A DNA stretch of 64,000 nt from Candidatus Omnitrophota bacterium (lineage in GTDB: Bacteria; Omnitrophota; Gorgyraeia; JABMRN01; RBG-13-46-9), in assembly GCA_043817155.1 (NCBI GenBank), contig JBDRHE010000059.1, positions 65,540 to 129,539 on the forward strand. Reading direction: 5' to 3'. Below, piece by piece: positions 2,571-59,397 of this stretch (the first letter of the stretch is position 1; the number at the start of each line of letters is the position of its first letter). Under the pieces are notes generated by a model. The model did no database searches. It was given only the letters and a program-made list of their open reading frames with translations, and was not told where the DNA came from. A program made the position numbers and the translations under genes.

Positions 2571-3761
2571 TTATTTATGCTTACCCACGCTATCCAATTT
2601 AAGGTCGAAGAAGGACTTCTTTGCGTTTGAGAGATCGGCCCTTTTCATTATGTCAACTATCCTCTTGGCGGCCCTTCCGTCACCGTACGGATTCTTCACA
2701 TTTCTGCAAATATTTCTAAAGTCAGCGGAATATGCGATTCTGAAAGCTCTCTTAATAGAGTTGAGACTGCCGTCAGCGTCAATGATCGATGCGGTCTTGA
2801 TCCTGCCAAGCTGCCTGGTCCCTACATTGACCGTTGGAATGCCGAAGGAAGGCGCCTCTATTATGCCGCTCGATGAATTACCCGCAACAACATCCATGTG
2901 CCGAAGGGCGCTTAAATATAGCGACCTCCCCATGGATGTGAAGCATGCAACCTTGTCTCTCCGATGAGAAACAAACCTGTCTATTAGAGCGTTTATCATC
3001 TTAGAATACATGTCGGGATTAGGCCGGGTAATTATTACCTTTGTATCCGCAAGCCCGCCCACAACCCCTAAGAGGTGTTTTAATTGTTCTTCCGAAACGG
3101 ATCTCTTTTCAGCCGTCATGGGGTTAAAGGTTATGATTATATTCCTCTTCCCAAGCTTAAACTTTATCTTCTTTTCAAATTCGTCTCTTTTAAATAATTC
3201 AGTATTTGCTATATTGTCCAGGCCCAAAGTACCGACATTGAATACACGCTCCGGCGCCTCACCCATCTGTATTACTCTATTTCTATAAGTATCTGTCGAT
3301 ACAAAATGCAAAAATGACATCTTTGTAATTGCATGCCTGAGGCTCTCATCGAGCGACCCTTCGGTCAATTCTCCACCGTTGATATGAGCGATCGGTATCT
3401 TCAGGAAGAGACATGCTACTCCTGCTGCCAGTGATTCAAACCGGTCACCCAATAAGAATACCGCGTCCGGCTTAAGAGCCCTTAATGCCTTCGTAAAGCC
3501 TGTAATGCCGGCGCTCACCGATCCGGCTATTGCGCCGGCGGTATCGCGGGAGAGCGGAAGCTTCACCTTGCGGTCTATTCTAAAACCGTCTCCTTCAATT
3601 TCTCTATAGGTTAAACCATATTCCGGTGAGAGATGCGCCCCTGTCGCCACAATCTGCAAAATATTGCGCCCCTTATTATTCTTTATCTCTGTAGCCAGGG
3701 GATAGAATAAGCCCCATTCGGCTCTCGTACCCGTCATAATGCAAAGTCTTCTCTTCTTCAT
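2571..3761 (-). CDS. UDP-N-acetylglucosamine 2-epimerase, hydrolysing type (NeuC/LegG-like)
   Basis: N-terminal CIMTGTRAEWGL motif typical of NeuC-type hydrolysing 2-epimerases; length 396 aa; directly downstream of a NeuB-family synthase. Confidence 0.7.
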   Translation of the reverse strand: MKKRRLCIMTGTRAEWGLFYPLATEIKNNKGRNILQIVATGAHLSPEYGLTYREIEGDGFRIDRKVKLPLSRDTAGAIAGSVSAGITGFTKALRALKPDAVFLLGDRFESLAAGVACLFLKIPIAHINGGELTEGSLDESLRHAITKMSFLHFVSTDTYRNRVIQMGEAPERVFNVGTLGLDNIANTELFKRDEFEKKIKFKLGKRNIIITFNPMTAEKRSVSEEQLKHLLGVVGGLADTKVIITRPNPDMYSKMINALIDRFVSHRRDKVACFTSMGRSLYLSALRHMDVVAGNSSSGIIEAPSFGIPTVNVGTRQLGRIKTASIIDADGSLNSIKRAFRIAYSADFRNICRNVKNPYGDGRAAKRIVDIMKRADLSNAKKSFFDLKLDSVGKHK

Positions 3762-5410
3762 AATTCTATAAACTCGTCTTTCTTAAAATCTCTTTTGGCG
3801 GCCCTTCCGAGCACATCATTCCATTCCATCGCGCTGATACCGGTGGCGGGTCTCTTCGTCGTCACATTCCCGGAAACGAATAGTTCCCCTCTTCTTATAG
3901 GCTTTGCCGCAATGATACTCTTGCGAACTATGGATCTATTTCTCATTTCTGAACCCGATACCCTTTTAACACCGTCACCCAGCGCTCTTTCGACATTCCT
4001 TATAGCGGATATCATCCTCTTTAGCTCCCCGGGTTCAACGGAAGCCTTATGGTCAGGACCTTTGGCATTCTTATTCAATGTAAAGTGTTTTTCTATTATC
4101 GAGGCTCCGAGGGCGACCGCTGCCACCGCTGCTTCTATGCCGGAAGTGTGGTCAGAATAACCTATCTTCACATTCAGTACGTCTTTAATCGTCAGCATAG
4201 CCTTTAAATTGGCATCCTCGTAAGGGGTCGGGTAGGCTGTGTTACAATGTAGAACTGTTATCTTCTCTTTTGACGTCCCTGATTCTACCAAAATATTCAC
4301 CGCGCTGTCGATGTCGCTTAGATTGGCCATTCCGGTCGATAGTATGATCTCCTTCCTTAAGCTTCCAACCTTCTTCAGGTACGGTAAGTTCGTAAGCTCT
4401 CCGGAAGGGATCTTTAATCTCTTGAGCTTAAGATCTTTGAGGAGCTCTACGCTCTCCAGATCAAATGGGCTCGACAGGAATTCTATTCCCCGCGCCTTGC
4501 AGTGCCCTATAAGCTCACGGTGCGTCTTAACGTCAAGCTCCAATCTCTTTAGCATATCGAGCTGCGATTCTTTGGCGCCGGATCTGCTCTTCTGGTACCG
4601 GGCTTTGGGCGCGGCGGCGCTTGCTACTCTCTCTGCTTTGAATGTCTGAAATTTGACAGCATCCGCGCCTGCTCTGGCCGCTACATCGACCATCCTCTTT
4701 GCCGTCTTCACGCTACCGTTGTGATTAACGCCGGCTTCAGCTATGATGAAGGTTTTTTTATTCTTGTCATCTGCATCACTATATTTAGGAAGAGATCTCC
4801 GGCCATCCTGTACATCATGTCGGACCGTCATACCGGTTCCAACCATGCACCTCTTGCCGATCTTTATACATTGGATAACATTTGCGCCGGTCCCTATATG
4901 GGCCTCCTCAGCGACCTTAACCCCTCCGCTCAATGTAGCCCTGGGCGCCACATGCACGAAATCCCCTATAATACAATCGTGATCTATTGAAGAGTACGTA
5001 TTGATAATAACATTCCTGCCTATCTTTGCGCCCGGGTTTATAACAGCAGCTGCCGCCACGAATGTTCCCTCTCTCATCTTAACATCCCCTGCCACCACCG
5101 CTTTCGGATGAACAATGACCGGCAACCTGAATCCCAGATCTGCCAGCTTCGAATAGAGCTTCTTCCTTGATCCGCAATTCCCGATCGAGCCGATCGAAAT
5201 AAAGGCATTCTTTACGCCATCCTTGCGCAGTTGTTTAAGCATATTATCGCTTCCCAAAACCTTGATTCCAAGAACGGTAGCGCCCTTTTTCAATTTTGGA
5301 TCAAGTATCCCACGGATATCAAATACGCCGGAACGCTTAATCGCGTCTATAACAACTTTGCAGTGTCCGCCGCCCCCAACAAGGATAATCTCTTCTGGCA
5401 CTCTTTTCAT
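3758..5410 (-). CDS. Fusion protein: N-terminal hexapeptide-repeat sugar N-acetyltransferase (NeuD/PglD-like) + C-terminal NeuB-family nonulosonic acid synthase with SAF domain
   Basis: Residues ~1-200 show a left-handed beta-helix acetyltransferase pattern with GGGGHCKVV N-terminus. Residues ~215-550 carry the NeuB block (IIAEAGVNHNGS, KFQTF) and a C-terminal SAF domain. Confidence 0.7.
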   Translation of the reverse strand: MKRVPEEIILVGGGGHCKVVIDAIKRSGVFDIRGILDPKLKKGATVLGIKVLGSDNMLKQLRKDGVKNAFISIGSIGNCGSRKKLYSKLADLGFRLPVIVHPKAVVAGDVKMREGTFVAAAAVINPGAKIGRNVIINTYSSIDHDCIIGDFVHVAPRATLSGGVKVAEEAHIGTGANVIQCIKIGKRCMVGTGMTVRHDVQDGRRSLPKYSDADDKNKKTFIIAEAGVNHNGSVKTAKRMVDVAARAGADAVKFQTFKAERVASAAAPKARYQKSRSGAKESQLDMLKRLELDVKTHRELIGHCKARGIEFLSSPFDLESVELLKDLKLKRLKIPSGELTNLPYLKKVGSLRKEIILSTGMANLSDIDSAVNILVESGTSKEKITVLHCNTAYPTPYEDANLKAMLTIKDVLNVKIGYSDHTSGIEAAVAAVALGASIIEKHFTLNKNAKGPDHKASVEPGELKRMISAIRNVERALGDGVKRVSGSEMRNRSIVRKSIIAAKPIRRGELFVSGNVTTKRPATGISAMEWNDVLGRAAKRDFKKDEFIEL

Positions 5411-6504
5411 CTTTTAATAACTTTCCTTATCACATCACAAATGTAGTGAATGTCCGCTTGCGAATTGAGTGTAGAACTGGGGAGACACAGGCCCTTATTG
5501 TGTATCTCCTGCGAATTAGCGCAAGTACCCTGTCTATACTTCCGATAAGGTGGAAAATCTTTTACCGGCGTAAAGACACGTCTTGTAACAATATCCCGCT
5601 TTCGTAACCCTAACTGTAGCCTGGGTATATTGCCCTCATATGTGATGCATGAAAGCCAATAGGCGCTTTCTGCGTTGGGATACTCTTCTTGAAAACGGAT
5701 ACTTTTAATACTCTTTAGTTCTTCGCGATAGATCCTATTAAACGTACGCTTCTTTTCCAAAAAGCCATCCAGTCTCTTAAGCTGGGCAAGCCCGAGTGCC
5801 GCTTCGATGTTCGTCATCCTCTCATTAAATCCTATTTCGCGGTGATAGTATTTGCCCGATTCATCCTTTGCCTGATTTGCCAGGAATTTGATGTGCTCAA
5901 GGACCCGGGTACGTTTTCCGACTATCATGCCGCCGCCGCCTGTTGTAATGGTCTTATTTCCATTAAAACTGAAACATCCGAAATCACCGAAAGTACCGGT
6001 ATGCCTTTTCTTAAATTTAGCGCCCAGGCTTGCGGCCGCGTCCTCAACAACATAAACACCATACTTCTTGGCAATGCCCATGATCTGGCTAATGTTGCAG
6101 GGGTTGCCGTAAAGGTGTACCGGTATTATAGCCTTTGTTCTCCTGGTTATATGCTTCCTTACTTTATGCGGATCGATGTTCCATGTGTCCGGATCTACAT
6201 CGACAAATACTGGGGTAGCGCCGACATATATTACCGGATTGACCGTAGCTACAAATGTAAGCGCCGGCACGATCACTTCGTCGCCGGCTCCTATGCCAAG
6301 CTCCCTTAACGCAATATGTATGGCCGTTGTTCCGCTCTGTGTGGAGACTGCCCTATTTGCTCCCAGATATTTCGCAAAGTTCTTTTCAAATTCCGAAACA
6401 AAGGGCCCAACGGTCGAAACATAGCCTTTATCGATAGCGCTGTTTAAATAGCTCTTTTCCAGGGCCCCGACATTTGGAGCATCCAAAAGGATCTTCTTAT
6501 ACAT
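5407..6504 (-). CDS. DegT/DnrJ/EryC1/StrS-family PLP-dependent sugar aminotransferase
   Basis: Typical DegT N-terminus (LLDAPNVGALEKSYLNSAIDKGYVS...GPFVSEFE); length 365 aa. Confidence 0.75.
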   Translation of the reverse strand: MYKKILLDAPNVGALEKSYLNSAIDKGYVSTVGPFVSEFEKNFAKYLGANRAVSTQSGTTAIHIALRELGIGAGDEVIVPALTFVATVNPVIYVGATPVFVDVDPDTWNIDPHKVRKHITRRTKAIIPVHLYGNPCNISQIMGIAKKYGVYVVEDAAASLGAKFKKRHTGTFGDFGCFSFNGNKTITTGGGGMIVGKRTRVLEHIKFLANQAKDESGKYYHREIGFNERMTNIEAALGLAQLKRLDGFLEKKRTFNRIYREELKSIKSIRFQEEYPNAESAYWLSCITYEGNIPRLQLGLRKRDIVTRRVFTPVKDFPPYRKYRQGTCANSQEIHNKGLCLPSSTLNSQADIHYICDVIRKVIKR

Positions 6505-7540
6505 TATAAATATCCGATTTATAAAGATTCAGGTTTTTCTTGTTCTTAAGCCATTTTATGGTCGCATCCAGACCCTGATCAAGTGAAAATTTTGGCCTCC
6601 AATCAGTTAACCTTGTGATCTTCTCATTGCACCCCATAAGACGCATAACTTCTGAACTCTTTGGCCTTACCCTCTTTCGATGCAGTACTATCCTGGCTTT
6701 TGGACTCACCTTGTTGATGATCTTCCTTGCCACATCCCCTATACTGATCTCTTGCCCGGAAGCTATGTTCAATTCCTGCCCGATCGTCTTTTGCGAACAC
6801 GCTATAGCGATAAATCCCCGGCAAACATCCTTTACGTAGTTGAAATCTCTTACCGGAGCAAGTGACCCGAGTTTAATCTTCGTCTCTCCCTTTAGAAGCT
6901 GTGTAATGATGGTAGGTATGATCGCTCTAGCCGACTGCCTGGGTCCATAAGTATTAAAAGGGCGCGCAATGGTAACCGGCGCGTTGAAAGACCTCATAAA
7001 CGATTCGGCAATCTTATCGGCCCCTATCTTGGAAGCGCTATATGGAGACTGCCCTTGCAAGGGATGCGCTTCATTTATGGGCACAGACCTTGCCGTCCCG
7101 TAAACTTCTGATGTAGACGTTACAATGATCCTCTTTACCTTCTGTTCCAATCCGGCCTTGAGAATATTAAGAGTTCCTTTTATGTTGGTATCAATGTAAG
7201 AATCCGGGGAGTAGTATGAAAATGGTATTCCTATTAGCGCGGCCAGATGAAATACAATGTCGATACCTTTCATGGCCCGTCTCACCCCACCGGGATCGCG
7301 CACATCACCTGTAAATATCTCGATCTTATCCACTCTCTTCTTATCAAAGCTATCGAGCCAGCCCCAGGAATTGAAGGAATTGTAAAAGACGAAGGCCCTG
7401 ACCTTACAGCCTTCATCAAGCAAGTGTTCTACAAGGTGGCTTCCTATAAAACCGTCGGCTCCTGTTACGAGGACTTTTCTATTTTTTAATTCCATCGCTC
7501 TCCTTCGTGCCAAACGGAATATTACTCCACAATCTCTCAT
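6497..7540 (-). CDS. NAD-dependent sugar 4,6-dehydratase/epimerase (extended SDR); likely start at internal MELKNRK (~7495)
   Basis: [18 protein letters not shown] Rossmann motif and YSASKIGADK YxxxK motif; position within a legionaminic/pseudaminic-like module. Confidence 0.7.
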   Translation of the reverse strand: MRDCGVIFRLARRRAMELKNRKVLVTGADGFIGSHLVEHLLDEGCKVRAFVFYNSFNSWGWLDSFDKKRVDKIEIFTGDVRDPGGVRRAMKGIDIVFHLAALIGIPFSYYSPDSYIDTNIKGTLNILKAGLEQKVKRIIVTSTSEVYGTARSVPINEAHPLQGQSPYSASKIGADKIAESFMRSFNAPVTIARPFNTYGPRQSARAIIPTIITQLLKGETKIKLGSLAPVRDFNYVKDVCRGFIAIACSQKTIGQELNIASGQEISIGDVARKIINKVSPKARIVLHRKRVRPKSSEVMRLMGCNEKITRLTDWRPKFSLDQGLDATIKWLKNKKNLNLYKSDIYNV

Positions 7541-7704: not shown

Positions 7705-8259
7705 TCACCTCGTTAATGCCATCTCTTTTTTACCATTTCTTTTAGGTTTGATCTTAAATATATTACTCAAGAGTGTTGAATTAACGAGATTGAATAAGGA
7801 TTGGGCCTTGCCATGCAGGCTATTCAATTCATCCAATCTTTGTTTGAACAACCTCATGGTCCCCTGATCTTCTTCACTCGCGGAATTGATCACATTCAAA
7901 GCCTGGTAAGAAGAATCGATCATCTCCTTGAATTCAAGCATCCTATGTTGCGTCATAGACCTTACCCTATCCATTATTACTTTGGATATATCCCCTTCTG
8001 CTTCGTAATAGTCTCTTCTCGATCCCTTTACCCAGATTTTATGCACAGCCCCATACCGTTCAAGGGCCCTCATGTTGATGCTCGCGCTTCCCTTACTTAT
8101 CTTAAGCTGCTCCACCATGTCATTAAGCGACAGTGGCTTGCTGCTTAAGTAAAGAAGCGCATAAAGCTGGGCCATAATATTATTGAGTCCGAATTTAGCG
8201 CATATCTGGTTAATCTTGTCAAGAAATAGATACTGTGCCTGAGCCAATTCTTCATTCAT
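7705..8259 (-). CDS. Winged-helix transcriptional regulator, GbsR/MarR-like
   Basis: HTH region LSLNDMVEQLKISKGSASINMRALERYGAV followed by WVKGSRRDYYEA, reminiscent of the GbsR/OpcR choline-responsive repressor family. Confidence 0.5.
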   Translation of the reverse strand: MNEELAQAQYLFLDKINQICAKFGLNNIMAQLYALLYLSSKPLSLNDMVEQLKISKGSASINMRALERYGAVHKIWVKGSRRDYYEAEGDISKVIMDRVRSMTQHRMLEFKEMIDSSYQALNVINSASEEDQGTMRLFKQRLDELNSLHGKAQSLFNLVNSTLLSNIFKIKPKRNGKKEMALTR

Positions 8260-8748: not shown

Positions 8749-8759
8749 CTCTTCATGCA

Positions 8760-9321: not shown

Positions 9322-9382
9322 TTTAGGGATTCCCGTGGGGGATAGATATGTAACATCGTAAGTATTGTAATTCTCAGATGTT

Positions 9383-10093
9383 TTACCTTGGGTCAAACAG
9401 TGATTTGAACTCAAAAAGGGTTCGTTTTAAGGGAGATTGGATTGTCGACCTGCATAAGCCGGCCGATTTAATTGTAGGCAGAATTGTTATAAAATCGCCA
9501 TAATTGTGATCCGGTAGGGGCTCACCGCTAAGTGTCACCCCTTTCCAATTGCCGGCTTTTATATCATCAAGACTCGCGAACTCACCATGATCATTTACAA
9601 AGTAGACCCCATACTGGGCATCGAAGACAGACCATCTATTATCTAGCTTCACAAATGAGAGTAACGCCGTTCGCTTCTTACCCTCTGTCCCGACCAGTGA
9701 ATAGAACGCTTCGAGACCCGCATAATTGCAAAGTGTCGAGAAGACATCCTGGGATTGGTCATTGGTCCCGTAGCCCCTAACAATTATGTGCCAGACATGG
9801 TCGTCTATAACAGGATAACCATCTGGTACTCTCCTTATATTTCCGTTTATCCAGATAAGTATCTTCATAACCCTTTCCCTCTCGTTATCCGAAGGGGCTA
9901 CGATCTGTTTCACCAAAAGTTGATAATTATAATGCCTGTCGAAGAAATTCAATACTTTAAGGTATAGCGGTAATGTTATGGTATGTACCTTCTGGTTTAT
10001 GCCCTGGCGGGTAGAGACTTCAATATTAAGAGTGAAGATTGCAAAAAAGAACATGCCTATTAAAACTGAAAGGGATATGAGTCTCTTCTTCAT
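9383..10093 (-). CDS. Hypothetical exported/membrane-anchored protein (weak transglutaminase-like resemblance)
   Basis: N-terminal signal/TM segment (LISLSVLIGMFFFAIF). HVWH and RWSVFD motifs vaguely resemble a transglutaminase-like core, but the order is atypical. Confidence 0.3.
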   Translation of the reverse strand: MKKRLISLSVLIGMFFFAIFTLNIEVSTRQGINQKVHTITLPLYLKVLNFFDRHYNYQLLVKQIVAPSDNERERVMKILIWINGNIRRVPDGYPVIDDHVWHIIVRGYGTNDQSQDVFSTLCNYAGLEAFYSLVGTEGKKRTALLSFVKLDNRWSVFDAQYGVYFVNDHGEFASLDDIKAGNWKGVTLSGEPLPDHNYGDFITILPTIKSAGLCRSTIQSPLKRTLFEFKSLFDPR

Positions 10094-10120: not shown

Positions 10121-11188
10121 CTAATCGATAAATCTCTCATGCCACATCTCAAGCATTAAAAGGGACCAGAGCTGGAACGTGTAGTCGCGGGTACCCGAAG
10201 TGTGCTCTTTTACCATTGAGCAAACGGTATCATGATTAAAATATCCTCTTTTCGTAGAGGGTCCCGAAAGTAATGTATCGTGCAAAAGATCCTTTAACTC
10301 ATTTCTGAACCACTTCCCAACCGGCACGCCAAAACCCATCTTACTCCTTACGATATTCTCTCTCGGAAGAAGGTCCTTGACCGCTCTTTTTAGAATGTAC
10401 TTCTTTACAAACCGGCGCATCTTATATTCAGCCGGAAGTTTTGCGACAAATTCCATCAGTTTATGGTCGAGAAACGGCGAACGCGCCTCAAGCGAACAGG
10501 CCATGCTGGCTATATCGACCTTTACAAGAAGATCATCCGGCAGATACGTATGTGTGTCCGTAGCCAGAAGCCTGTCAAGATGGCTTCCCTTCCGGCAATT
10601 GCCGATAAAAGGTTCTATGCGGCTCAATGGACTCTTCATGGTAGTGCGATTCTTAAAATCTTCTGAATATAGCTTCTCCTTTAAATCATTCTGCATTATA
10701 CCTACCCACCTTATGTATCTCTCCGCGAAAGGCAGATCAGCGCCATCAAAGAATCTCTTGATTCTACGCAATCTATTCTTTGAATCCATGGAGTCCGGTA
10801 ACGCGGCCGCAAAACCACTTACTATCCTCTTTAGTGGGGTAGGCATATTCTGATATATCTCCGAAGCGATCATCGCTTTATACCGATCATACCCGGCAAA
10901 CAATTCATCCCCGCCATCGCCGTTCAGCGCTACGGTTACGTAGCGACGCGTCTGGCTTGAAACATAGTAGGTGGGGATGCAGGAAGAATCAGCATATGGT
11001 TCTCCGTACCTCTCTACCAAAAGCGGCAAAATTTCAAGTGCGTTGGGTTTTACTATCAGTTCGTGGTGTATTGTGTTGAACCTCTTAGCCACCCTTCTTG
11101 CGTGTTCTAACTCGTCGTATGATCTCTCCTCAAATCCTATAGAGAATGTCTTAATACGATTTTCGGATAACTGGCTCATAAGGCCCAC
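10121..11188 (-). CDS. Asparagine synthetase-like amidotransferase (AsnB/PseA family), C-terminal synthetase half
   Basis: Asparagine-synthase domain. The PP-loop FLSGGIDSS is encoded just upstream, in frame, immediately after an in-frame TGA. Confidence 0.7.
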   Translation of the reverse strand: MGLMSQLSENRIKTFSIGFEERSYDELEHARRVAKRFNTIHHELIVKPNALEILPLLVERYGEPYADSSCIPTYYVSSQTRRYVTVALNGDGGDELFAGYDRYKAMIASEIYQNMPTPLKRIVSGFAAALPDSMDSKNRLRRIKRFFDGADLPFAERYIRWVGIMQNDLKEKLYSEDFKNRTTMKSPLSRIEPFIGNCRKGSHLDRLLATDTHTYLPDDLLVKVDIASMACSLEARSPFLDHKLMEFVAKLPAEYKMRRFVKKYILKRAVKDLLPRENIVRSKMGFGVPVGKWFRNELKDLLHDTLLSGPSTKRGYFNHDTVCSMVKEHTSGTRDYTFQLWSLLMLEMWHERFID

Positions 11189-11224
11189 GATTGTGCTCGA
11201 ATCTATGCCACCGCTTAAAAACGC

Positions 11225-12013
11225 TCAAAGCGGAACATCGCTGTATAATCTGATATTTACCGCATCCTTAAGGTATCTCATGACTTCCGTTGCAGCGTCT
11301 TCCTCGGATATTTTGATCTTCGCGGAATAGTCAAGGTTCCAGTATCGCCTCAAGGTAGCCTTTTCGTCTTCTAATGTTAGTGTATGGGCCGGCGGCAATT
11401 TGAAGATATCCTCGTATATGGTCAAAGGCGCCGGAATATACCCGAAGGTGAGATAATGGTGCATTGCCTCGTAGCTTATCTTTTTTTCTATGAGTCCGCT
11501 CTCTAAAATCGAAGTGAATTCCGAAGCGAAAACGAATCTCCGGTCCTTATGATAATAGAGCAATGGTTTTTGTCCCGCGCGATCCCTGGCGATAAAAAGC
11601 GTTCGCTTCTTCTGGTCCCATATCGCGAAGGCAAACATGCCACGTAAATACTTGACGCACTCTTCTTTGTGTTCTTCGTAAAGATGTACCGCTACCTCCG
11701 CATCCGTATTTGATCTGAATATATGACCCTTGTTTTTAAGCTCTTCCCTTAAAGTCTTATAATTGTAAATTTCGCCATTCAGCACAAGCCGGATACTTTC
11801 GTCCTCATTAGCCATAGGCTGCGTCCCCTGCGAACTTAAATCGATTATGCTAAGTCTCCTGTGACCCAGTCCGACTTTGGGCGACGATTCAAGGTTAATA
11901 TAAATTCCTCTGTTATCCGGCCCCCTATGCGTCATCTTGTCAGTCATAGCCTGGATCTTATCACGGCTTATAGCGCCGCTTGCATTGTCTATTAGCCCGC
12001 ATATTCCGCACAT
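11225..12013 (-). CDS. Asparagine synthetase-like amidotransferase, N-terminal class II glutamine amidotransferase half (same gene as 10121-11188, interrupted by an in-frame TGA at 11225-11227)
   Basis: MCGICG N-terminal nucleophile Cys; ends ...SDVPL then TGA, then AFLSGGIDSS in the same frame. Confidence 0.7.
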   Translation of the reverse strand: MCGICGLIDNASGAISRDKIQAMTDKMTHRGPDNRGIYINLESSPKVGLGHRRLSIIDLSSQGTQPMANEDESIRLVLNGEIYNYKTLREELKNKGHIFRSNTDAEVAVHLYEEHKEECVKYLRGMFAFAIWDQKKRTLFIARDRAGQKPLLYYHKDRRFVFASEFTSILESGLIEKKISYEAMHHYLTFGYIPAPLTIYEDIFKLPPAHTLTLEDEKATLRRYWNLDYSAKIKISEEDAATEVMRYLKDAVNIRLYSDVPL

Positions 12014-12019: not shown

Positions 12020-13060
12020 TCAAACCCCCTTTACGCAATTTTCTAAAATCTTTAGAAATTTAGGCGCGTTTACATTCAATGAATAGTTCCTCTCGGCTGT
12101 CCTTCTGCCTTCGGCGCCCAATCTTTGGCGTAAAGGCAACGATTCTATGAGCCGGGATAGTTTTTCGCACCACTCCTCAATTCCTGAGGCCAGAAATCCG
12201 TTTACGCCGTCCTGTATAACCTCCGCGTTCATCCCGACAGGAGATGCGACCGCCGGAATGCCGACCGCCATATACTGGATTATCTTAAACGCGCACTTTC
12301 CCCTTGTCCATTCATCGTCAGGCATCGGCATGAGCCCAATATCAAAGTGCTGCAGCTCCGTAACTTCCGAATTCAGTACCCAATCCTTATTCACTAAAGA
12401 GACATCCGCGCTCTTATCGAACCGTGCGCCGATAACGCGATATTCCACGTTATGATATTTTTGCGACAAGATCCTGAAAACTTCTTTGATCTCCGAAAGA
12501 TACTTTGCGGTTGTAGGCGAACCCATCCACCCGATCACAGTTTTTTTGTTATCTCTGAACCGTATAGCCGGTTTATATCTGTCTGTATCGATACATGTGT
12601 GGAGAACCTCCACATTTTTATTGAGCTTCAAGGCATACTCTTTTAAGAACCCGTTTCCCGCTATCACAAAATCCGATAAAGCTATGATCTTCTTTACCTT
12701 TGACGGTTTTGTAAGAAAGATGGAATCGTCAAAATCGTATATCAGTTTTTTTGACAACTTACCGAAAAGCCATTCAAAGATGCAATCATTTGTCGGGAAC
12801 GCTTCCCTGTGTATAAAAACGATCTCATAATTACGGCACTTGAATACATCCGCCAGTCTTAAGACGGTAAAAAAGACCAGGTACAGTATCTTTTGTAAAT
12901 ACCGGCCTTTCTTCAGGAGGATTTTCCTGAAATTACTACTGTAGAACGGCCGCACTGAAAAATTTATCCCTCTCTCCTTTAGCGTTGGCAGATATTGTTC
13001 AACCCGGAACCTGTTGCTTGGCCCTTCTGTCGGATACGGCACTATGAACAAAACTTTCAT
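12020..13060 (-). CDS. Glycosyltransferase family 4 (GT-B, GT1/GT4 type)
   Basis: C-terminal GIPAVASPVGMNAEVIQDGVNGFL motif typical of retaining GT4 enzymes. Confidence 0.7.
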   Translation of the reverse strand: MKVLFIVPYPTEGPSNRFRVEQYLPTLKERGINFSVRPFYSSNFRKILLKKGRYLQKILYLVFFTVLRLADVFKCRNYEIVFIHREAFPTNDCIFEWLFGKLSKKLIYDFDDSIFLTKPSKVKKIIALSDFVIAGNGFLKEYALKLNKNVEVLHTCIDTDRYKPAIRFRDNKKTVIGWMGSPTTAKYLSEIKEVFRILSQKYHNVEYRVIGARFDKSADVSLVNKDWVLNSEVTELQHFDIGLMPMPDDEWTRGKCAFKIIQYMAVGIPAVASPVGMNAEVIQDGVNGFLASGIEEWCEKLSRLIESLPLRQRLGAEGRRTAERNYSLNVNAPKFLKILENCVKGV

Positions 13061-13074
13061 AACAAACCCTGATT

Positions 13075-14292
13075 TTACATCATTAATTTACTATAGATCT
13101 CTTTATACTTCTCTACAGCGGCGTCTAAAGAAAATAGATCTTCCGCAATTTTGCGGCATCGCTTCTTAACAGCTTCCCTGTCCCCGATTAACGCCTTTAT
13201 TTTTTCATATGCCCGCTCATATTCCTCATGGGAGAATTCTTCAATCACGGCGCCAACATCATAATCCCTGATTATACGATCGCAGTCACCAATACCGGAA
13301 TTAATGACAACAGGTACCCCGCATGCCAGGCTTTCACCAAGTTTTATCGGCGAGCATCCGATCCCGGATAGCTTACGGTTATAAAATATCAATGAAAAAT
13401 TCGCGCGTGAAAAAGCTTCTGGCATATCTTTGTAATGGAGGGTATCCACACGGTAATCTGCCGCTCTTATGCCGAAAGAGAGCGCCTTTTTGCGAATTGC
13501 GTCCCTGGAATAGTTTGAAATGATCCAGAGAAAAGCTTCTTTTTTCCGTTCTTTCAAAAAACAGAAAAAATCAAGAATTCCGTTCAGGTTATAAAAACTT
13601 CCTAGATTCCCTGTATATAAAATTACCCATTTGTTCTCAATATCTCCGGCCATAGTCGTACCCTGCGTCTCTCCGGAAACGACGTCTGGTTTATCCGAAA
13701 ATACCTTCAAATCAACACCGCAGGGTATGACGGCAATATCGGATTTTACGTGAAAATGTCCGAGAATCGTTCTTTTTGCAGAGTCCGATAAAACAATTAT
13801 ATAATCCGCTTTTAAAAGAAGATAATTTTCCAATCTCTTGAATACAGAATAGAGGAGCCCTCCTTTTTCCCACGCTCCCGCGTCCACCTTTTCATCGGGC
13901 CAAAAGCCGCGCATATCAAATATGATCTTTATTTTAAGAAAGCGTTTCAGGATACACCCCATCAGCGCCGCTATATACCCTCTTGCATGAACTACGTCGA
14001 TCCCCTCTTTTTTAACAATATAAATTCCGGTAATAACACCCTGAAAAATATCGAAGAGAGTAGCCGGTACCGTAGGATGTTTATGATATCTTTTGCGTAC
14101 CCAGCTTATATGCTTATTCTCTAATGTTTTGCGGAGCTTACGATCCTTATCTCCGACGGGATCTCTCTCTTTTTCAAAACTAAGAAGCGTAATAAGGATC
14201 CCACTGCCTGAAAGCCGCTTAAGATACGGAACAATTTGCGATTCAGAAACGAAGTCCGATATTGCATCATAGGTAATATACAAGATTTTCAT
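13075..14292 (-). CDS. Glycosyltransferase family 4
   Basis: GVPVVINSGIGDCDRII C-terminal GT4 motif; 405 aa. Confidence 0.7.
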   Translation of the reverse strand: MKILYITYDAISDFVSESQIVPYLKRLSGSGILITLLSFEKERDPVGDKDRKLRKTLENKHISWVRKRYHKHPTVPATLFDIFQGVITGIYIVKKEGIDVVHARGYIAALMGCILKRFLKIKIIFDMRGFWPDEKVDAGAWEKGGLLYSVFKRLENYLLLKADYIIVLSDSAKRTILGHFHVKSDIAVIPCGVDLKVFSDKPDVVSGETQGTTMAGDIENKWVILYTGNLGSFYNLNGILDFFCFLKERKKEAFLWIISNYSRDAIRKKALSFGIRAADYRVDTLHYKDMPEAFSRANFSLIFYNRKLSGIGCSPIKLGESLACGVPVVINSGIGDCDRIIRDYDVGAVIEEFSHEEYERAYEKIKALIGDREAVKKRCRKIAEDLFSLDAAVEKYKEIYSKLMM

Positions 14293-17965: not shown

Positions 17966-19501
17966 CTACGCCTTCAAAAGCTTAAGTCCCGCCTTTGCCT
18001 TTCTTTTAAATTCTTCGAATGTCCGTATCTTTAACATTCTGCTCATAATATAGGAAGGGCGGGTATAGAATTCTTTATAGGCATAATGCAAAAGCTCCTG
18101 GAGCTCCTTTTCGGACAATATCCCTTCCCAGTATTTTGTTCTGAAATCCTTACGCGGAGACTTCGCAAAATCCCTCCAATAATCCTGTTTGAATATTCCG
18201 CTTTTCAGCGCGTCTTCATAGGCCTCGGTGCCGGGAAATGGCGTAAATATGGTTATGTGGACGTAATCGGGGTCAAGTTTTTTGGCAAAATCTATCGTTT
18301 TCAATATATCATCTCTGGTCTCCTCCGGGGCCCCGATCATGAAATAAGCGAAAGTTGAGATACCAATATCTTTTGTAGCCTTGAATATCTTTATAGCCCT
18401 GTCCAGGTCTATGTCTTTCTTAAGAACCTTCAATATCTTTTCGGTGCCGGCTTCCACGCCATAGTGTATTCTCTGGCAATTTGATTTTTTTAGCGCCATG
18501 AGCATCTCGCGGTCGACATTGCTGACCCTTGTCCTTATGTCCCACCCTATTTTTAAACGCCGCCTGGCTATCTCTTCGCATACTTCCATTACCCTATTCC
18601 TCTGCACGGTAAACGTATCGTCATAAATGAATATCTCTTTTATGCCCATATTCTGACATTCTTCCATCTCGTCTACCACTTTTCCGGGCGAGATAGCCCG
18701 AAAGACCTTTCCCATGCTTGGCCTATAACAGAACGTACACCGATAAGGACAACCCCTGCTTGTAAACATCGTTGTTATGGGGCTTCGCCGCGCCAAAAGA
18801 GACGTATACTTGCCGTACGGCACGAGGCGGCGTGCGGGAGACGGTAGCTTTTCAAGATCTCTTATAAAATCGGGATTGCCTGTATTGACAACATTTCCGT
18901 TCTCCTTAAAGACTACGCCCTTAACCTTTTTAAGATCTTCTATATTATGCATGTTTGACAGAAGCTCTGTAAATACAATTTCGCCCTCACCAAGTACGAC
19001 ATAATCTATCCCATGTAGATCGATCGTCTCTTCCGGAAAAATACACACGTGCGGTCCTCCAAGGACTACCTTGGTATTCTGATTGATACTTTTTACAATA
19101 TCTACCGTCTTTAAAACGTCGATCATCGTAAATGTAAGCGCCGTGATACCTACTACATCCGGACCATATTCTCTTATGCGCCTTTCGAGCTGCGGATACC
19201 CTATCTCTTCTACCGGAACGTCAATTACGTTTATCTCGTGGTCGGAATGTTTCTCCAGATATGCCGCAACATACAGTATGCCGAGCGGCGGGTTGAACCC
19301 TCTCTCTTCATCGATAATCGGAGGATTACAGCTCAATATCTCGTTCTCTACCGAAGGGTTTATAAATAGGACCTTCACGTCTATCTCGTTCTCCTGTCGA
19401 TAAGGTCTGCCAAAAGTCCGATAACCAGCGTTTGAATACCGGCCATTGCCAAAATCATCGTAGTGGTATCCAGTATTTTCGGCAAACAGAACATGCTCCA
19501 A
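17966..19501 (-). CDS. B12-binding domain radical SAM protein (class B radical SAM, putative methyltransferase)
   Basis: N-terminal cobalamin-binding Rossmann region (VLGEGE) followed by the CxxxCxxC cluster RGCPYRCTFC. Confidence 0.8.
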   Translation of the reverse strand: MEHVLFAENTGYHYDDFGNGRYSNAGYRTFGRPYRQENEIDVKVLFINPSVENEILSCNPPIIDEERGFNPPLGILYVAAYLEKHSDHEINVIDVPVEEIGYPQLERRIREYGPDVVGITALTFTMIDVLKTVDIVKSINQNTKVVLGGPHVCIFPEETIDLHGIDYVVLGEGEIVFTELLSNMHNIEDLKKVKGVVFKENGNVVNTGNPDFIRDLEKLPSPARRLVPYGKYTSLLARRSPITTMFTSRGCPYRCTFCYRPSMGKVFRAISPGKVVDEMEECQNMGIKEIFIYDDTFTVQRNRVMEVCEEIARRRLKIGWDIRTRVSNVDREMLMALKKSNCQRIHYGVEAGTEKILKVLKKDIDLDRAIKIFKATKDIGISTFAYFMIGAPEETRDDILKTIDFAKKLDPDYVHITIFTPFPGTEAYEDALKSGIFKQDYWRDFAKSPRKDFRTKYWEGILSEKELQELLHYAYKEFYTRPSYIMSRMLKIRTFEEFKRKAKAGLKLLKA

Positions 19502-28215: not shown

Positions 28216-29271
28216 TTATCCTTTCATTTTATTCGCTAAAATCTTCGCTATCCGTTCATGCGCTAAACCGTCCCCATAAAATCTTTCAGGGTCCATTATC
28301 TTGCGCAGCTTCGACATCTTCTTTACAGCCATAACTATCTTTTTGACATTCACTCCCGTTACACAATTGAGCCCGGCTTTCACCGTCTCCAGCCACTCGG
28401 TCTCGTTTCTGATTGTAACACACGGTGTGTTAAATATAAATGCTTCCTTCTGCACGCCGCCTGAATCAGTGACAATAACTTCGGCATTCTTCTCGAGATC
28501 CAGCATTTTTGAGTAGCTTACGGCTTTTGTAACTTTTATATTTCCGGCGATACGTATATTGTATCTCTTTATACATTTCGATGTCCGTGGATGAATCGGC
28601 AATATTACACATTTTTTTAACATGCCGAGTGCTTTAAATATATTCTTAATATTTTTTAAATTATCGGTATTTTCGGCTCTGTGTATCGTACAGAGTATAT
28701 ACTTCTCGGATTCCCCTTTCTTCTTTATTAGACTGCTGAATTTTTTTAAGCTATCATACATAACATCCCCGACAAGATGGACGCCTCGCGTCCTCCCTTC
28801 TCTTCTTAGATTGTCTACCGCTACCCTGGTAGGACAGAAGAGTACGCCGGAAATACTGTCCGTTACAACCCTATTGATCTCTTCCGGCATACTGCTATTG
28901 AAACTTCTAAGCCCCGCTTCCACATGCGCTATGCCAATATTGAGTTTTGAAGCGGCCAGCGCGCCTGCAAGGGTGGAGTTGGTATCCCCATAGACTAACA
29001 CCATATCCGGCTTTTCTTTAAGCAATACATCTTCTACCCCGATAAGCATCTTTGCGGTTTGCTTTGCGTGCGATCCGCAGCCCGCTCCAAGTTCATAGTC
29101 GGGCCTTCGTATATTAAGCTCACTAAAGAATACATCGGACATGTTTCTGTCATAATGTTGGCCCGTATGAATTACAACCTCTTTTATGTGTTGTGATTTA
29201 AGTGCCCTGGAGACTAATGCCATTTTAATGAACTGAGGCCTTGCGCCTATTATTGTCACTATCTTTTTCAT
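28216..29271 (-). CDS. UDP-N-acetylglucosamine 2-epimerase, non-hydrolysing (WecB-like)
   Basis: IIGARPQFIKMA...HTGQHYD motifs characteristic of WecB/MnaA. Confidence 0.8.
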   Translation of the reverse strand: MKKIVTIIGARPQFIKMALVSRALKSQHIKEVVIHTGQHYDRNMSDVFFSELNIRRPDYELGAGCGSHAKQTAKMLIGVEDVLLKEKPDMVLVYGDTNSTLAGALAASKLNIGIAHVEAGLRSFNSSMPEEINRVVTDSISGVLFCPTRVAVDNLRREGRTRGVHLVGDVMYDSLKKFSSLIKKKGESEKYILCTIHRAENTDNLKNIKNIFKALGMLKKCVILPIHPRTSKCIKRYNIRIAGNIKVTKAVSYSKMLDLEKNAEVIVTDSGGVQKEAFIFNTPCVTIRNETEWLETVKAGLNCVTGVNVKKIVMAVKKMSKLRKIMDPERFYGDGLAHERIAKILANKMKG

Positions 29272-30824
29272 CCTTTGACCCCTCTTGTCCGTTTCTCGCT
29301 TTCTCTTGTTCCGGAGTCAGAAAGCGTTTTCGTGTTATGAATATACTTTAAGTAGACATACCTTCGAAAACCGGTTAAAGCTCGGATTAACTTGGTATCC
29401 AGATTAAACAGTCGGATCCCGTGAACAAGACCGATAAATCTCAATTTGCAATACTGTCTACGAATGTTGTATAAAGAACGCATTGCTCTATTATTGCTGA
29501 TGGGGGCATTGATTGAAAATGCCGATATCCACCTGATCTCTTCTATATAGCTTTTGAAATTTTTACTAAACCAGGGCAGTCTCGAATTCTTGTACCAGAT
29601 ATAATTTTCCCAGCCTTCCAAGCGATCCGGCGGAATAAACCCTAATTCAATGCACCTGTCATATAAAGGTGTACCGGGATATGGGACATATATATTTGGC
29701 CCGTTAATGCTTGACTGTTTGTCTCTGGCCAAAATGCGGATTAATTTCATCGTTTCTTTTATGTCGTTTTTCGTCTCTTCGGGGAACCCTACCATAAAGT
29801 GATAATTTATTTTAAAATCAAACCTTTTCGCTTTCTCATGGGCGTTTATAACGGTCTCGTTTCTAATATCTTTATTAATCATTTTCAAGATCCTATCGGA
29901 ACCGCTCTCTATGCCGAAGGTCATGCTGACGCAACCGCTTCTCTTTATCAATTCAATAAGATCGTCCTCATAACTCAGAAAAGTATCGGCTCTTATGTCA
30001 GTATGCCATTCGATCTCGATCTTTCTATCAATTAAGCCCTTACAGATCTCATGAACACGCTTCTTATTCGCAAAAAAGTTATCCGACACGAAGGTGATCG
30101 CGTTTACGCTGTATTTTTTTGTCAGCGCTTCAATCATATTAAGTATCTTTTCCGAGGTCATCGAGCGCCACCGTCTTTTATTAAATCTTAGATTATAACA
30201 GAATGCGCACCTATTCGGACATCCTCTGTCAACATTCAGGTCGAGCCCCCTCTGCTTACTCTGAAAATACGGCCTCTTATGTGAGGCGTAATAATTAACA
30301 TCGACCAGATCGAAGCGAGGCGTAGATAAAGAGTTTAAATCGAGCAGGTTATCTTCCGGTTGGGAACGGTTTATCTTTCCGCTTCGCTTAAATAAGATAC
30401 CCTTTACGCTGTCCAGGCTCTTATGATTTCTGATACATTCAACCACGTCCAAGAACTTTTTTTCACCTTCACCCGTAACGACTATATCAACAAGATCATT
30501 TTTTATAGTTTGCTCGGGTAGAAAACTCGGATGTATGCCTCCCCACACAATGGGAATTTGTTTTATCTTTTTTACTGCCTTTGAAAAATCGAGGGCGGAT
30601 TTGATCGAACCGCCGGTCATAACGCTTACACCGGCGCAGATGGTCGATGAATCTATGGCATTTTCTACTTCAGTACGCCAATCCGGATAGGCCTCTCCGT
30701 CAACTATTTTAACCGTAAACCCTTTGTCGGCTAAAGGCGTAGCTATATAAATTACGCCCAAAGGATATGACCCGGAGATAACCGCTCTATCTGATTTTGG
30801 CCGAAACAAAACAATCTCTGCCAT
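29268..30824 (-). CDS. B12-binding domain radical SAM protein
   Basis: VTGEGE cobalamin-domain motif; DRGCPNRCAFC CxxxCxxC. Confidence 0.8.
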   Translation of the reverse strand: MAEIVLFRPKSDRAVISGSYPLGVIYIATPLADKGFTVKIVDGEAYPDWRTEVENAIDSSTICAGVSVMTGGSIKSALDFSKAVKKIKQIPIVWGGIHPSFLPEQTIKNDLVDIVVTGEGEKKFLDVVECIRNHKSLDSVKGILFKRSGKINRSQPEDNLLDLNSLSTPRFDLVDVNYYASHKRPYFQSKQRGLDLNVDRGCPNRCAFCYNLRFNKRRWRSMTSEKILNMIEALTKKYSVNAITFVSDNFFANKKRVHEICKGLIDRKIEIEWHTDIRADTFLSYEDDLIELIKRSGCVSMTFGIESGSDRILKMINKDIRNETVINAHEKAKRFDFKINYHFMVGFPEETKNDIKETMKLIRILARDKQSSINGPNIYVPYPGTPLYDRCIELGFIPPDRLEGWENYIWYKNSRLPWFSKNFKSYIEEIRWISAFSINAPISNNRAMRSLYNIRRQYCKLRFIGLVHGIRLFNLDTKLIRALTGFRRYVYLKYIHNTKTLSDSGTRESEKRTRGVKG

Positions 30825-33852: not shown

Positions 33853-35316
33853 CTACCTGAAAACCTTTGTGATCGGAAACAGAAAGATCCTTTTAGCCAG
33901 TCTCCTTAGAAATAAGAGCGGATGTGTTTTATAGAAATGCATCTTGAGATAGTAATACCCCCTCTTGAAGGTCCTTCTAAGATCATCTCTTGTCCAATTT
34001 TCCGTTGATACGCTAAAACTTGATATGTATAAGTTTTCGAGTAGGCGTTCTGCATCAACATATTTATTTTCAGTGCATATCTTATAAAGCTCCGACCCCG
34101 GATATGGCGTTGCGACAGATACAAAAGCGTCATAAATTTTAACTTCCCTGGCGAAACGGTATGAGTCCCAGATCTGATCCAGTGTTTCGCCGGGCATCCC
34201 TATAATTAAAAAAATCCCGGTCTGGAGTCCTATGCTTCTGGCATACTTGATCAATCGTTTTACCTTTTCCAGATCCAGGGGTTTTTTTATGATATTCTTT
34301 AAAACATCTTTGTTGCCTGACTCAACGGCAATATTCAATTTATAGCAACCGGAATCTTTCATCTTCTTGATAAGCGCCTCATCGAGAGCGAATGCCGCGA
34401 CGCCATTAGGAGTATCCCATTTAAGGTTCAGGCGCTCTTCTATCATAAGATCGAAAATCCGTTCACCGCGCTTCACATCCAGGGTTACATTATCATCTTC
34501 AAAAAGAAGTTCTTCAATGTCGTATTTGTCTTTTAATTCTTTCATCTCCTTGATCACATTTTCAGGACTTCTCTTACGAAAATTCTTGCCCCATACGTGA
34601 TGGGCCGTACAGAAAGCGCATCCTATGGGGCAGCCCCTCGATGTCACAATGGGAGAAAACTTTTCGCACCTTCTTGAACCGTGTGAAGAAGATAATCCAA
34701 AATATTTCGTTATACCCAAAAGATGCCATGCGGGAAAAGGCAGGCTATCGAGGTCTTCTATAAAATATTTTTTGGGACACACCTTTATTTTGCCGTTCTC
34801 TCGAAAAGCAATGCCATCTAGCTTATCAAACGTCGCGCCGTTTTCCAGACAGTCTATTAAAGTTTTCAGGGTGTATTCGCCTTCGCCTATCACCACAAAA
34901 TCAACATTCCTGTCCTCCATTACGGCTTCAGGTAATACCGATGGGTGCGCTCCGCCCGCTATAACAACCATGCGGGAATCTATCTTTTTCGCCAATCGAT
35001 ATATTTCATGAGCGTTTTCAGATTGCCTGGAAAAGAGATTGCTTACGCCCAGTATATCCGGAGAGAACCTCTTTATCTCATCTTCGATCATCGCGAAAGG
35101 AGCGCCTATTCGTACGGTATCTTTATCTATATGTGTCCTGTTATGGAACCCTTCTATAAGCGAATCGAAGATCTTTACCTCTATTCCACGTTCTTCCAGC
35201 ACAGCGCCCAGATACCCCAGCCCCAGCGGAGGAATGGGGTTGATATCGGTCGCGTCCCTGGATGTAAACGCCGGAGGAGTCAGGAGCATTACCTTTTTTA
35301 TTTTTTTTGAGCTCAT
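33853..35316 (-). CDS. B12-binding domain radical SAM protein
   Basis: VIGEGE; SRGCPIGCAFC. Confidence 0.8.
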   Translation of the reverse strand: MSSKKIKKVMLLTPPAFTSRDATDINPIPPLGLGYLGAVLEERGIEVKIFDSLIEGFHNRTHIDKDTVRIGAPFAMIEDEIKRFSPDILGVSNLFSRQSENAHEIYRLAKKIDSRMVVIAGGAHPSVLPEAVMEDRNVDFVVIGEGEYTLKTLIDCLENGATFDKLDGIAFRENGKIKVCPKKYFIEDLDSLPFPAWHLLGITKYFGLSSSHGSRRCEKFSPIVTSRGCPIGCAFCTAHHVWGKNFRKRSPENVIKEMKELKDKYDIEELLFEDDNVTLDVKRGERIFDLMIEERLNLKWDTPNGVAAFALDEALIKKMKDSGCYKLNIAVESGNKDVLKNIIKKPLDLEKVKRLIKYARSIGLQTGIFLIIGMPGETLDQIWDSYRFAREVKIYDAFVSVATPYPGSELYKICTENKYVDAERLLENLYISSFSVSTENWTRDDLRRTFKRGYYYLKMHFYKTHPLLFLRRLAKRIFLFPITKVFR

Positions 35317-37425: not shown

Positions 37426-38218
37426 AATCCAATCGGTTTTTAAAAAGGGCGAGATATAGCCTCAACAAAAAAGTCACGCACATCCACACTAAAAACATGC
37501 AATAGTATATCCACAAAACGCGTATTGTAAAAAACGCCTCTATCAGGATAAAGAGACAGATTCCATCCACAACGCATGTATTGTGAGCAAACAATACCTT
37601 ATCTATCCAGTCTTTTATCTTTCGAGCACCCGGTTTCTCTAGCTTATCATTCGTCCGCTCAGTTTTGCCTTCACCTGTATTTGTCGACCTGGATCTGGCA
37701 AATGCGTAGATAAATCTCTCTTGAGCGCTCTTATATATATCAAGGGCAAAGACTGTTGGAATCACCGGAGCTAAATAAAAAAATATTGGACTCGTTGTAT
37801 TGCCCAAATATATACCCAGGCCGGCCCATAGAGTAATCCAATCGACAGACGCTGAGTAATAATCGAGTATATCTCCGCCTGCTGATTTTTTGTTTTTCAT
37901 ATGAGCAAGCGAACCATCCGCCCAATCCAAAGTGGGTTTTAGAAATAATAAAACGACGGCAACCAATACACATATCACAGGTGGAAGCGCCAATAGGATG
38001 CCTGCGCAAACACTTAGGGCAATGTAAACAACTGTAACGGTGTTTGGAGAAATGGGGGTCTTTAATAACGTAAATACAATAACGCTTGCGCACTCACTAT
38101 AAAAATTTCTTTTGAGCCTACGATATGAAAGACCCCACTTAAATACATCCGGATAGGATCCCATGTGACGTTCGTAGATCTTATGCCTTACTTCGGAATA
38201 TGTTAATGCCATTACCAC
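37388..38218 (-). CDS. CDP-alcohol phosphatidyltransferase-family membrane protein (putative phospho-alcohol/phosphonate headgroup transferase)
   Basis: Polytopic protein with DG..AH.......GG.ILD...D block (DWADGSLAHMKNKKSAGGDILDYYSASVD) approximating the CDP-OH phosphotransferase signature. Confidence 0.5.
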   Translation of the reverse strand: MVMALTYSEVRHKIYERHMGSYPDVFKWGLSYRRLKRNFYSECASVIVFTLLKTPISPNTVTVVYIALSVCAGILLALPPVICVLVAVVLLFLKPTLDWADGSLAHMKNKKSAGGDILDYYSASVDWITLWAGLGIYLGNTTSPIFFYLAPVIPTVFALDIYKSAQERFIYAFARSRSTNTGEGKTERTNDKLEKPGARKIKDWIDKVLFAHNTCVVDGICLFILIEAFFTIRVLWIYYCMFLVWMCVTFLLRLYLALFKNRLDYECENLQRKLYG

Positions 38219-39756: not shown

Positions 39757-40461
39757 TTAATCTATGTTTAAACTCTTCGCTTTCTTCAAATCTTTAGGAA
39801 AATCGATCTCTACCCATTTTAAACCGTCTATCAGCTCATACGATATGGTCATGCTCTTAAAGAGATCCGGTATGATAAACTCATAACCGGCCTGCCTCTC
39901 TCCTGCAATAATTTTCTTCTCGAGCAATGCCTTCAATCTTCTTGAGCCAGGCAACGAGAATTTTGTAACGCCGGCCCATTCTCCCAGAATGCCATAATCC
40001 CCGCTCAGTCCTCTGGCCAGGCGAACGGCCCGGCCATTAGTGAATCCGACCCGCACCGCCTCGTCATCATTGCCCGATTTTTGGTCGATCAAAAAGAAGT
40101 TCTGTTTTTTCGATCTAAACACCGTTTCTATAACATCCCTTTCAAAGTACGTGTCCGAATCTATAAGCAACGTACTCCCATTCAAATGCTCTCTTGCCCT
40201 CCACAGAGAAAGGATGCTGCCTTCTCCAAAATCGTCATTGTTGATAAAGCTGACCTTTAGCCTGTGTTTTTTAACTTTATCAATTACTTTTTTTGCCTTG
40301 TATCCCACGACAATAACTATATTTCGCACACCGCATTCCTTGAGCATCTTTATCATTCGTACGATAAGCGCTTCTTTGTTTACCTCCGCGAGGCATTTCG
40401 GGTCATTCGTATAACCCCTGAGACGCTTTCCCTCCCCGGCAGCAAGTATGATGGCCTTCAT
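39757..40461 (-). CDS. LicC-like sugar/phospho-alcohol nucleotidyltransferase (putative CTP:phosphonate or phosphocholine cytidylyltransferase, PntC/LicC family)
   Basis: MKAIILAAGEGKRL NTP-transferase motif; ~234 aa; overall resemblance to LicC. Translationally coupled to PhnW. Confidence 0.65.
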   Translation of the reverse strand: MKAIILAAGEGKRLRGYTNDPKCLAEVNKEALIVRMIKMLKECGVRNIVIVVGYKAKKVIDKVKKHRLKVSFINNDDFGEGSILSLWRAREHLNGSTLLIDSDTYFERDVIETVFRSKKQNFFLIDQKSGNDDEAVRVGFTNGRAVRLARGLSGDYGILGEWAGVTKFSLPGSRRLKALLEKKIIAGERQAGYEFIIPDLFKSMTISYELIDGLKWVEIDFPKDLKKAKSLNID

Positions 40462-59235: not shown

Positions 59236-59397
59236 GTGTTCAACCTCTGAACATATAGTATCAAAATAGACCATTTTAGTCAAGCCTATATGCCAAATAA
59301 TATTACATTTAGCACCCCACCTCTCAACCGGAGTATGCCAGCAGCCTGGGGCGCATGAGAGCATTCTGCGCATAGCAGAAAGAAGAAGAGAATTCAT

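Follow-up and report, generated by a model that had tools for sequence, protein, structure and literature searches.

Does an in-frame TGA codon in the place of an otherwise invariant glycine mark a dying gene, an error in the assembled sequence or a recoded stop? The question is raised by an asnB-type glutamine amidotransferase gene on the minus strand of a 64,000-nt stretch of DNA (hereafter the window, whose positions are used for all coordinates) from a Candidatus Omnitrophota metagenome-assembled genome (MAG). A single in-frame TGA located before the PP-loop splits this one AsnB-type gene into two pieces. We consider it probable that the stop is a real and recent nonsense allele in a WbpS-like amidotransferase gene read with the standard code, which would make the gene an incipient pseudogene.

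One gene in two pieces

Direct reading of the minus strand gives TAC AGC GAT GTT CCG CTT TGA GCG TTT TTA AGC GGT GGC ATA GAT TCG AGC, that is, YSDVPL, a stop, and AFLSGGIDSS. According to the listing of open reading frames (ORFs) and their translations, ORF 11225..12013 (262 aa, starting with MCGICG) and ORF 10121..11188 share one frame. The TGA at 11225-11227 is the sole interruption, and the frame stays open from position 11224 down to the TAG at 10121-10123. Sequence reading and ORF listing thus agree with the original prediction, which had described two ORFs in the same frame separated only by this TGA.

The conceptual read-through protein of 630 residues can be aligned at 100% coverage to hundreds of proteins of ~ 630 aa (best E ~1e-289). 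The best 120 homologues are all single chains of ~ 630 aa, with 60-67% identity. Homology that extends from end to end indicates one broken gene and not a chance juxtaposition of two. The catalytic Cys2 follows directly after the initiator Met and is invariant in the homologue alignment. Both domains of the family are present, although not on one uninterrupted polypeptide, the chain being cut at codon 263. No second asnB copy able to compensate was detected by tblastn in the window.

To characterize the position of the stop, the read-through query was aligned with 22 homologues of 61-67% identity. The column at the stop, two residues before the ATP-binding PP-loop, is occupied by Gly in 22 of 22 homologues, and the SGGIDS motif is invariant. 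SGGLDS is its counterpart in E. coli AsnB (1ct9), and Gly is found at the stop position in the solved structures 1ct9 (sdvpyGvllsggldss), 6gq3 (tdrriGcllsggldss) and 7ylz (advplGlllsggldss). The earlier claim that the stop sits at an invariant glycine before the PP-loop is upheld by homologues and structures alike. The orthologue comparison proposed along with it as a check gave glycine throughout, encoded by GGC or GGA in the nearest orthologues. In the window, GGA represents 382 of 1388 Gly codons (27%). Because GGA is a common Gly codon here and orthologues use GGC or GGA, the stop is best read as the product of a single GGA to TGA transversion (G to T on the minus strand, C to A on the plus strand at 11227). 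The one-substitution origin suggested originally fits both observations.

Age and reality of the stop codon

Comparison of the two halves shows no decay of the gene, and the half past the stop has not drifted measurably. Where the 22 homologues all share a residue, the query has two private deviations, the stop itself and one K to R change, while intact homologues have 0-7. Deviations at otherwise invariant columns amount to 0 of 81 in the N-terminal half and 1 of 110 in the C-terminal half. Mean identity of the query to the homologues is 63.6% in the N-terminal and 65.0% in the C-terminal half, and the corresponding values among intact homologues are 64.0% and 63.8%. As the two halves are equally conserved, the stop must be either very recent or not real.

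The rest of the window speaks for the former. Besides the disrupted gene, the minus strand is covered by 56 long ORFs. Most have full-length Pfam matches and a few have weak matches or none, and a sign of disruption is seen in none of them. The statement that no other gene of the window is broken therefore stands. So many undisturbed ORFs in 64 kb point to a low assembly error rate, which speaks for a real variant. A single disrupted gene among 57 matches the pseudogene frequency common in bacterial genomes. We infer that the population itself carries this base.

Reading with the standard code is evident from the window. The 56 other long ORFs are closed by 24 TGA, 22 TAA and 10 TAG codons, so that TGA is the commonest terminator, and none of these ORFs requires an in-frame TGA to be read through. 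One of the 24 TGA codons (62118-62120) separates two unrelated genes, of a GFO/IDH/MocA oxidoreductase and of a hexapeptide acetyltransferase. The pair divided by it (62118..63173 and 61533..62117) was considered as a second broken gene and rejected, these being different genes. Furthermore, the TGA of the upstream glycosyltransferase gene (12020-12022) is in frame with the asnB ATG and only 6 nt away. Decoded as glycine, it would fuse the glycosyltransferase to AsnB and bury the catalytic N-terminal Cys, which is a further argument for TGA as a true stop. Since TGA is the most used terminator and divides two distinct genes, code 25 (UGA as Gly, as in Gracilibacteria and Absconditabacteria) is excluded for this window and the organism uses the standard code. 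The original prediction had dismissed code 25 as well. The likeness to that code is confined to a UGA where relatives carry glycine; the difference is that UGA is here the commonest true terminator and that no other gene of the window has it in frame.

Several points weigh against a real nonsense allele. The nearest homologue is only 67% identical, and each cluster formed by proteins of the source MAG has a single member. Complete lack of decay is also predicted by a sequencing error. The change lies at the boundary of a T-run and a G-run (CTT/GGA to CTTT/GA), which may be prone to miscalls on some platforms. In addition, the 0 matches obtained in metagenome contigs with the TGA version of a degenerate DNA pattern for DVPL-x-AFLSGGID, which count in favour of the main reading, come from a collection that provided no positive control. 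As a check of the pattern itself, its TGA form finds the window and its GGN form finds four fetched loci, and the absence of recurrence of TGA at this site is only suggestive. A 38-mer with N at the variable base had no match in metagenome contigs either. The scan of genome contigs for the locus reached at best 57% identity. A search with the N-terminal half-protein returned the source MAG's own record and otherwise sequences with at most 64% identity. In the collections searched, genome and metagenome proteins did not exceed 67% identity.

The strongest alternative, which we hold to be possible although less likely, is a base-call, consensus or assembly error. The gene would then truly carry GGA and be intact, and the T would be an artefact or an allele of a minority strain picked by the assembler. 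The absence of any other defect in the gene, the restoration of a perfect family consensus by one base, the position at the TT/GG homopolymer junction and the nature of a MAG as a population consensus are all in accordance with this explanation. It is weakened by the other 56 ORFs, which carry neither a frameshift nor a stop and make the error rate of this assembly look low. Moreover, about 4-5% of random substitutions make stops according to our estimate, and an error that happens to land as nonsense is for this reason a priori rarer than a true pseudogene. A consensus error is thus less likely than a real null allele.

Functional read-through or recoding, in which UGA is decoded by a suppressor or near-cognate tRNA and gives a full-length enzyme, perhaps as a means to hold expression low, is improbable. 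It would explain why the 367 codons past the stop are fully intact and conserved, and UGA is generally the leakiest stop codon. Nevertheless, signals for recoding are missing from the locus. A segment of 101 nt that includes the TGA and extends past it is less well folded than its shuffled versions (z = + 1.24), so that no stimulatory structure is seen. No Rfam family was found at gathering thresholds in the whole window, and locally an E-value scan offered no more than a snoRNA match at chance level. Genes for tRNAs are absent from the window. Gly codons are present in every homologue found, no second case of TGA at the site was met, and 24 neighbouring genes end normally in TGA. Near-cognate decoding of UGA inserts Trp, Cys or Arg, and not the invariant Gly. 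A literature search for stop-codon recoding in Omnitrophota yielded nothing relevant. We infer that read-through does not take place. The variant in which the UGA is real and some full-length enzyme is still made, through low-level and perhaps regulated read-through or with the help of a suppressor tRNA from another part of the genome, is in our opinion slightly harder still to credit. If read-through were true, amidation and thereby charge of the surface glycan would be tuned by termination efficiency, and recoding would occur at a strictly conserved glycine in a phylum without a known case. The initial shortlist of recent nonsense mutation, sequencing error and read-through was the right one, except that its read-through part is left without structure, Rfam element, tRNA or recurrence to support it.

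The hexamer CUU UGA at the stop is identical to the motif of the programmed + 1 frameshift in prfB, the gene of release factor 2 (RF2). Coding continues in the + 1 frame in prfB, while here the downstream domain is in the zero frame and the + 1 frame reaches a TAA after three codons. A frameshift of the prfB type was rejected on these grounds, as both halves lie in one frame, and the likeness is coincidental.

It is very improbable that the glutaminase and synthetase halves work as a functional split, i.e. as two polypeptides that assemble. Both halves retain strong domain matches, and GenBank lists the N-terminal half as a protein of its own. Against this, no ATG, GTG or TTG is present in frame between the TGA and the GTG listed in Table 1, and the first start-type codon available, this GTG, removes SGGIDS. 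A restart there, at residue 276, would give a product lacking the PP-loop. Because the only restart codon lies past this motif, no C-terminal product would bind ATP canonically, and a functional two-piece enzyme is unlikely. The best 120 homologues are all uncut chains, and shorter look-alikes are fragments at contig ends. An example is the 262-aa homologue P0127, which seems to end at the same site and was rejected as the artefact of a contig-end palindrome. Contig k141_262884 of the European Nucleotide Archive (ENA; locus L030, 1900-1986) ends in a perfect fold-back palindrome that cuts its asnB homologue at ...SDEP, an assembly artefact that mimics a stop.

Glycine decoding of TGA throughout the genome or selenocysteine at this codon has next to no probability left: TGA does align with Gly, but the use of TGA as terminator, also between unrelated genes, and the absence of any other ORF in need of read-through contradict the former, and selenocysteine was rejected because no hairpin similar to a selenocysteine insertion sequence (SECIS) is formed (by the same z value), no Rfam match was obtained and homologues have Gly, not Cys.

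Family assignment and predicted loss of amidation

The read-through protein matches TIGR01536 (glutamine-hydrolysing asparagine synthase) over the full length with 496.6 bits, above the cutoff of 267.1. This score, together with a class-II glutaminase domain that precedes a synthetase domain carrying the SGGxDS PP-loop, places it in the asparagine synthase family. The best curated model is TIGR03108, eps_aminotran_1, the amidotransferase of the XrtA/PEP-CTERM system, which is aligned over positions 1-623 of 628 with 643.8 bits. This score is below the curated cutoff of 816.9, so that by score the protein falls outside the equivalog. The asnB gene is located in a surface-glycan cluster, the context expected for eps_aminotran_1.

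The TIGR03108 family includes WbpS of P. aeruginosa and WbqG of E. coli O121, which form uronamides (PMC7468200). P. gingivalis PGN_1234 is closest to these two proteins, and its deletion abolishes the uronamide form of a sugar of the Wbp pathway. Conversion of a uronic acid into a uronamide is a known activity of WbqG and PGN_1234 (PMC7468200). The gene studied here shares with WbpS and WbqG the two-domain AsnB-type architecture, alignment to the model from end to end, and position in a glycan cluster after two glycosyltransferase genes; WbpB/WbpD/WbpE-like genes are found in the window as well. It differs in its score under the cutoff, in having no exosortase/PEP-CTERM partner in the window, and in being cut by a stop. 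We regard it as a WbpS-like glycan amidotransferase gene, and by analogy the enzyme likely works in the manner of WbpS. Its context in a glycan cluster speaks against a role in asparagine supply.

Similarity to E. coli AsnB (1ct9) and human ASNS (6gq3) comprises Cys2, the glutaminase domain, the PP-loop and the segment SDVPxG-xxLSGGxDSS, including the glycine hit by the stop. These two enzymes have 553-561 aa compared with ~ 630 aa here, and alignment to them is only partial.

The original prediction had proposed a PseA-like enzyme. Proteins of the PseA/WbpG type are also amidotransferases of nonulosonic-acid and glycan clusters, and the window harbours two NeuB genes and a gene similar to CMP-sugar synthetases. 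They are PP-loop proteins not known to carry an N-terminal class-II glutaminase domain, and in pseudaminic acid they are responsible for acetamidino modification. No PseA/WbpG-type N-acetyl-sugar amidotransferase model is among the 11 NCBIfam families that match the read-through protein. As the class-II glutaminase domain is present and such a model is not matched, PseA-like identity is not supported, and the protein is of the two-domain AsnB type with TIGR03108 as its best model.

With a real stop, translation would end after the 262-residue glutaminase domain and the synthetase domain would remain unmade. The amidation step would be lost. The substrate would by analogy be a uronic acid of the surface glycan, otherwise converted into its uronamide, and a more acidic glycan is predicted. 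The result would be a very recent null allele. In addition, about 1.1 kb of untranslated mRNA might exert polarity on the gene downstream, which begins 28 nt past the asnB stop. If the allele is real, this Omnitrophota population is predicted to make a non-amidated, more acidic form of one residue of its surface glycan. Loss-of-function variation in surface polysaccharide loci is often linked to interactions with phages or hosts.

In GenBank, the 262-aa fragment is recorded as MFH1593965.1, “asparagine synthase (glutamine-hydrolyzing)” of a Candidatus Omnitrophota MAG, to which our N-terminal piece is an exact match (P0121). Its neighbours carry the consecutive accessions MFH1593964.1 and MFH1593966.1, and the contig has 137,462 bp. 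The C-terminal piece (355-367 codons) has no protein record, and the exact 355-aa ORF is absent from the protein collection. The source protein set thus does not show the locus as one disrupted gene. The finding holds but is ordinary, a single nonsense substitution that is most likely a fresh null allele. Its main value is in annotation, as the two pieces belong under one pseudogene or disrupted gene, or under a corrected sequence should reads contradict the stop. It has no bearing on the evolution of the genetic code.

The glycan cluster and its intergenic elements

The window is one long glycan-biosynthesis region on the minus strand, with many glycosyltransferases, two NeuB genes, sugar epimerases and dehydratases, and a flippase-like gene. 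Features of the disrupted gene and of its surroundings are collected in Table 1.

Table 1. Positions of the disrupted asnB-type gene, its parts and other genes of the glycan region
Feature	Position	Strand	Details and evidence
Whole AsnB-family (WbpS-like) glutamine amidotransferase gene	10121..12013	-	630 sense codons counting TGA as codon 263, plus terminal TAG 10121-10123
N-terminal piece, class-II (Ntn) glutaminase with catalytic Cys2 (MCGICG)	11228..12013	-	262 aa; GATase_7 E 7.5e-46, GATase_6 E 5.4e-43 (Pfam)
In-frame TGA, codon 263, at invariant Gly position	11225..11227	-	Sequence reading, homologue alignment, solved structures
PP-loop SGGIDS, residues 267-272, ATP pyrophosphatase motif	11198..11215	-	Translation; 3' of the stop, 5' of any possible restart codon
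First in-frame start-type codon past the stop, GTG, residue 276	11186..11188	-	ORF listing
C-terminal piece, synthetase/ATP-pyrophosphatase domain, intact	10121..11224	-	367 codons; Asn_synthase PF00733 E 5.5e-97, positions 22-354 of 354
236-aa gene downstream of asnB	9383..10093	-	Weak transglutaminase-core match; begins 28 nt past asnB stop
Two GT4-type glycosyltransferase genes directly upstream of asnB	12020..14292	-	Pfam Glycos_transf_1, Glyco_transf_4
WbpB/WbpD/WbpE-like trio	60403..63173	-	
Phosphoenolpyruvate (PEP) mutase fused to nucleotidyltransferase domain	45570..47207		
Two-subunit thiamine pyrophosphate (TPP) decarboxylase	45085..45573 and 44513..45088		
Class-V aminotransferase	40458..41522		
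B12-binding radical S-adenosylmethionine (SAM) genes	17966..19501, 29268..30824, 33853..35316, 38212..39687, 41551..43056, 43056..44648, 51710..53098		

In L028 and L029, two related Omnitrophota-like loci, two GT4 genes, an intact asnB and a gene for a small protein (~ 236 aa) follow each other in this same order; in L028 the gene after asnB encodes 238 aa.

A phosphonate module of the 2-aminoethylphosphonate type lies within the glycan cluster (40458-47207) and is made up of the PEP mutase fusion, the TPP decarboxylase and the class-V aminotransferase of Table 1. The two ORFs of its TPP enzyme were considered as another broken gene and rejected. They encode N- and C-terminal TPP-enzyme domains and adjoin the PEP mutase gene, which argues for a normal two-subunit phosphonopyruvate decarboxylase and not for a break. 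The same glycan locus carries the seven B12-binding radical-SAM genes of Table 1 and at least seven SAM methyltransferase genes in 17966-53098. Together these genes suggest sugars or phosphonates that are heavily C- or P-methylated.

Two multidomain ORFs are observed near the start of the window. In the 550-aa ORF 3758-5410, a PglD-like N-acetyltransferase (PglD_N and hexapeptide repeats) is fused with a NeuB synthase that has a SAF domain. This ORF stands within a set of the legionaminic- or pseudaminic-acid type that comprises a DegT aminotransferase (5407..6504), a dehydratase (6497..7540) and a 2-epimerase (2571..3761). The 518-aa ORF 29-1585 combines an N-terminal cytidylyltransferase-like domain with a C-terminal PfkB kinase domain; heptose kinase/adenylyltransferases of the HldE type have the opposite order.

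More unusual than the asnB stop is the content of two large non-coding gaps, 8260-9382 and 59398-60402. A composite element of ~ 900 nt, built of very long, near-perfect hairpins, is present in them as two copies in inverted orientation (8440-9340 and 59380-60320), separated by about 51 kb. Copy 1 has three domains of ~ 200-340 nt, and the domains A and B, common to both copies, are 82-93% identical. For copy 1 the minimum free energy reaches −432.7 kcal/mol when the minus strand is folded (compared with −240 ± 10 for shuffles, z = −19) and −424.8 kcal/mol for the plus strand (z = −26); the strands of copy 2 give −417 and −409 kcal/mol. When the copies of domain A are compared, double changes that compensate each other are seen in 16 base pairs, and 8 pairs are broken. 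Each copy is positioned just upstream of a gene for a small regulator similar to helix-turn-helix (HTH)/MarR proteins (7705..8259 and 58867..59397). The element has no Rfam match, and similar DNA was not found in the fetched loci. It could be a mobile element of the foldback type or similar to miniature inverted-repeat transposable elements (MITEs), a large structured or double-stranded RNA, or a pair of recombination sites flanking the glycan cluster.

A gap of 408 nt that follows 57960..58841, a short NeuB gene whose 293-aa product lacks a SAF domain, contains repeats as well. At 57620-57920, repeat units of 51-55 nt lie in both orientations (about three against two), with GTCTTTGCGAGGCACC as their common core. 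The intergenic region around 59800 has a related core, GTCTTTGCGAGG.

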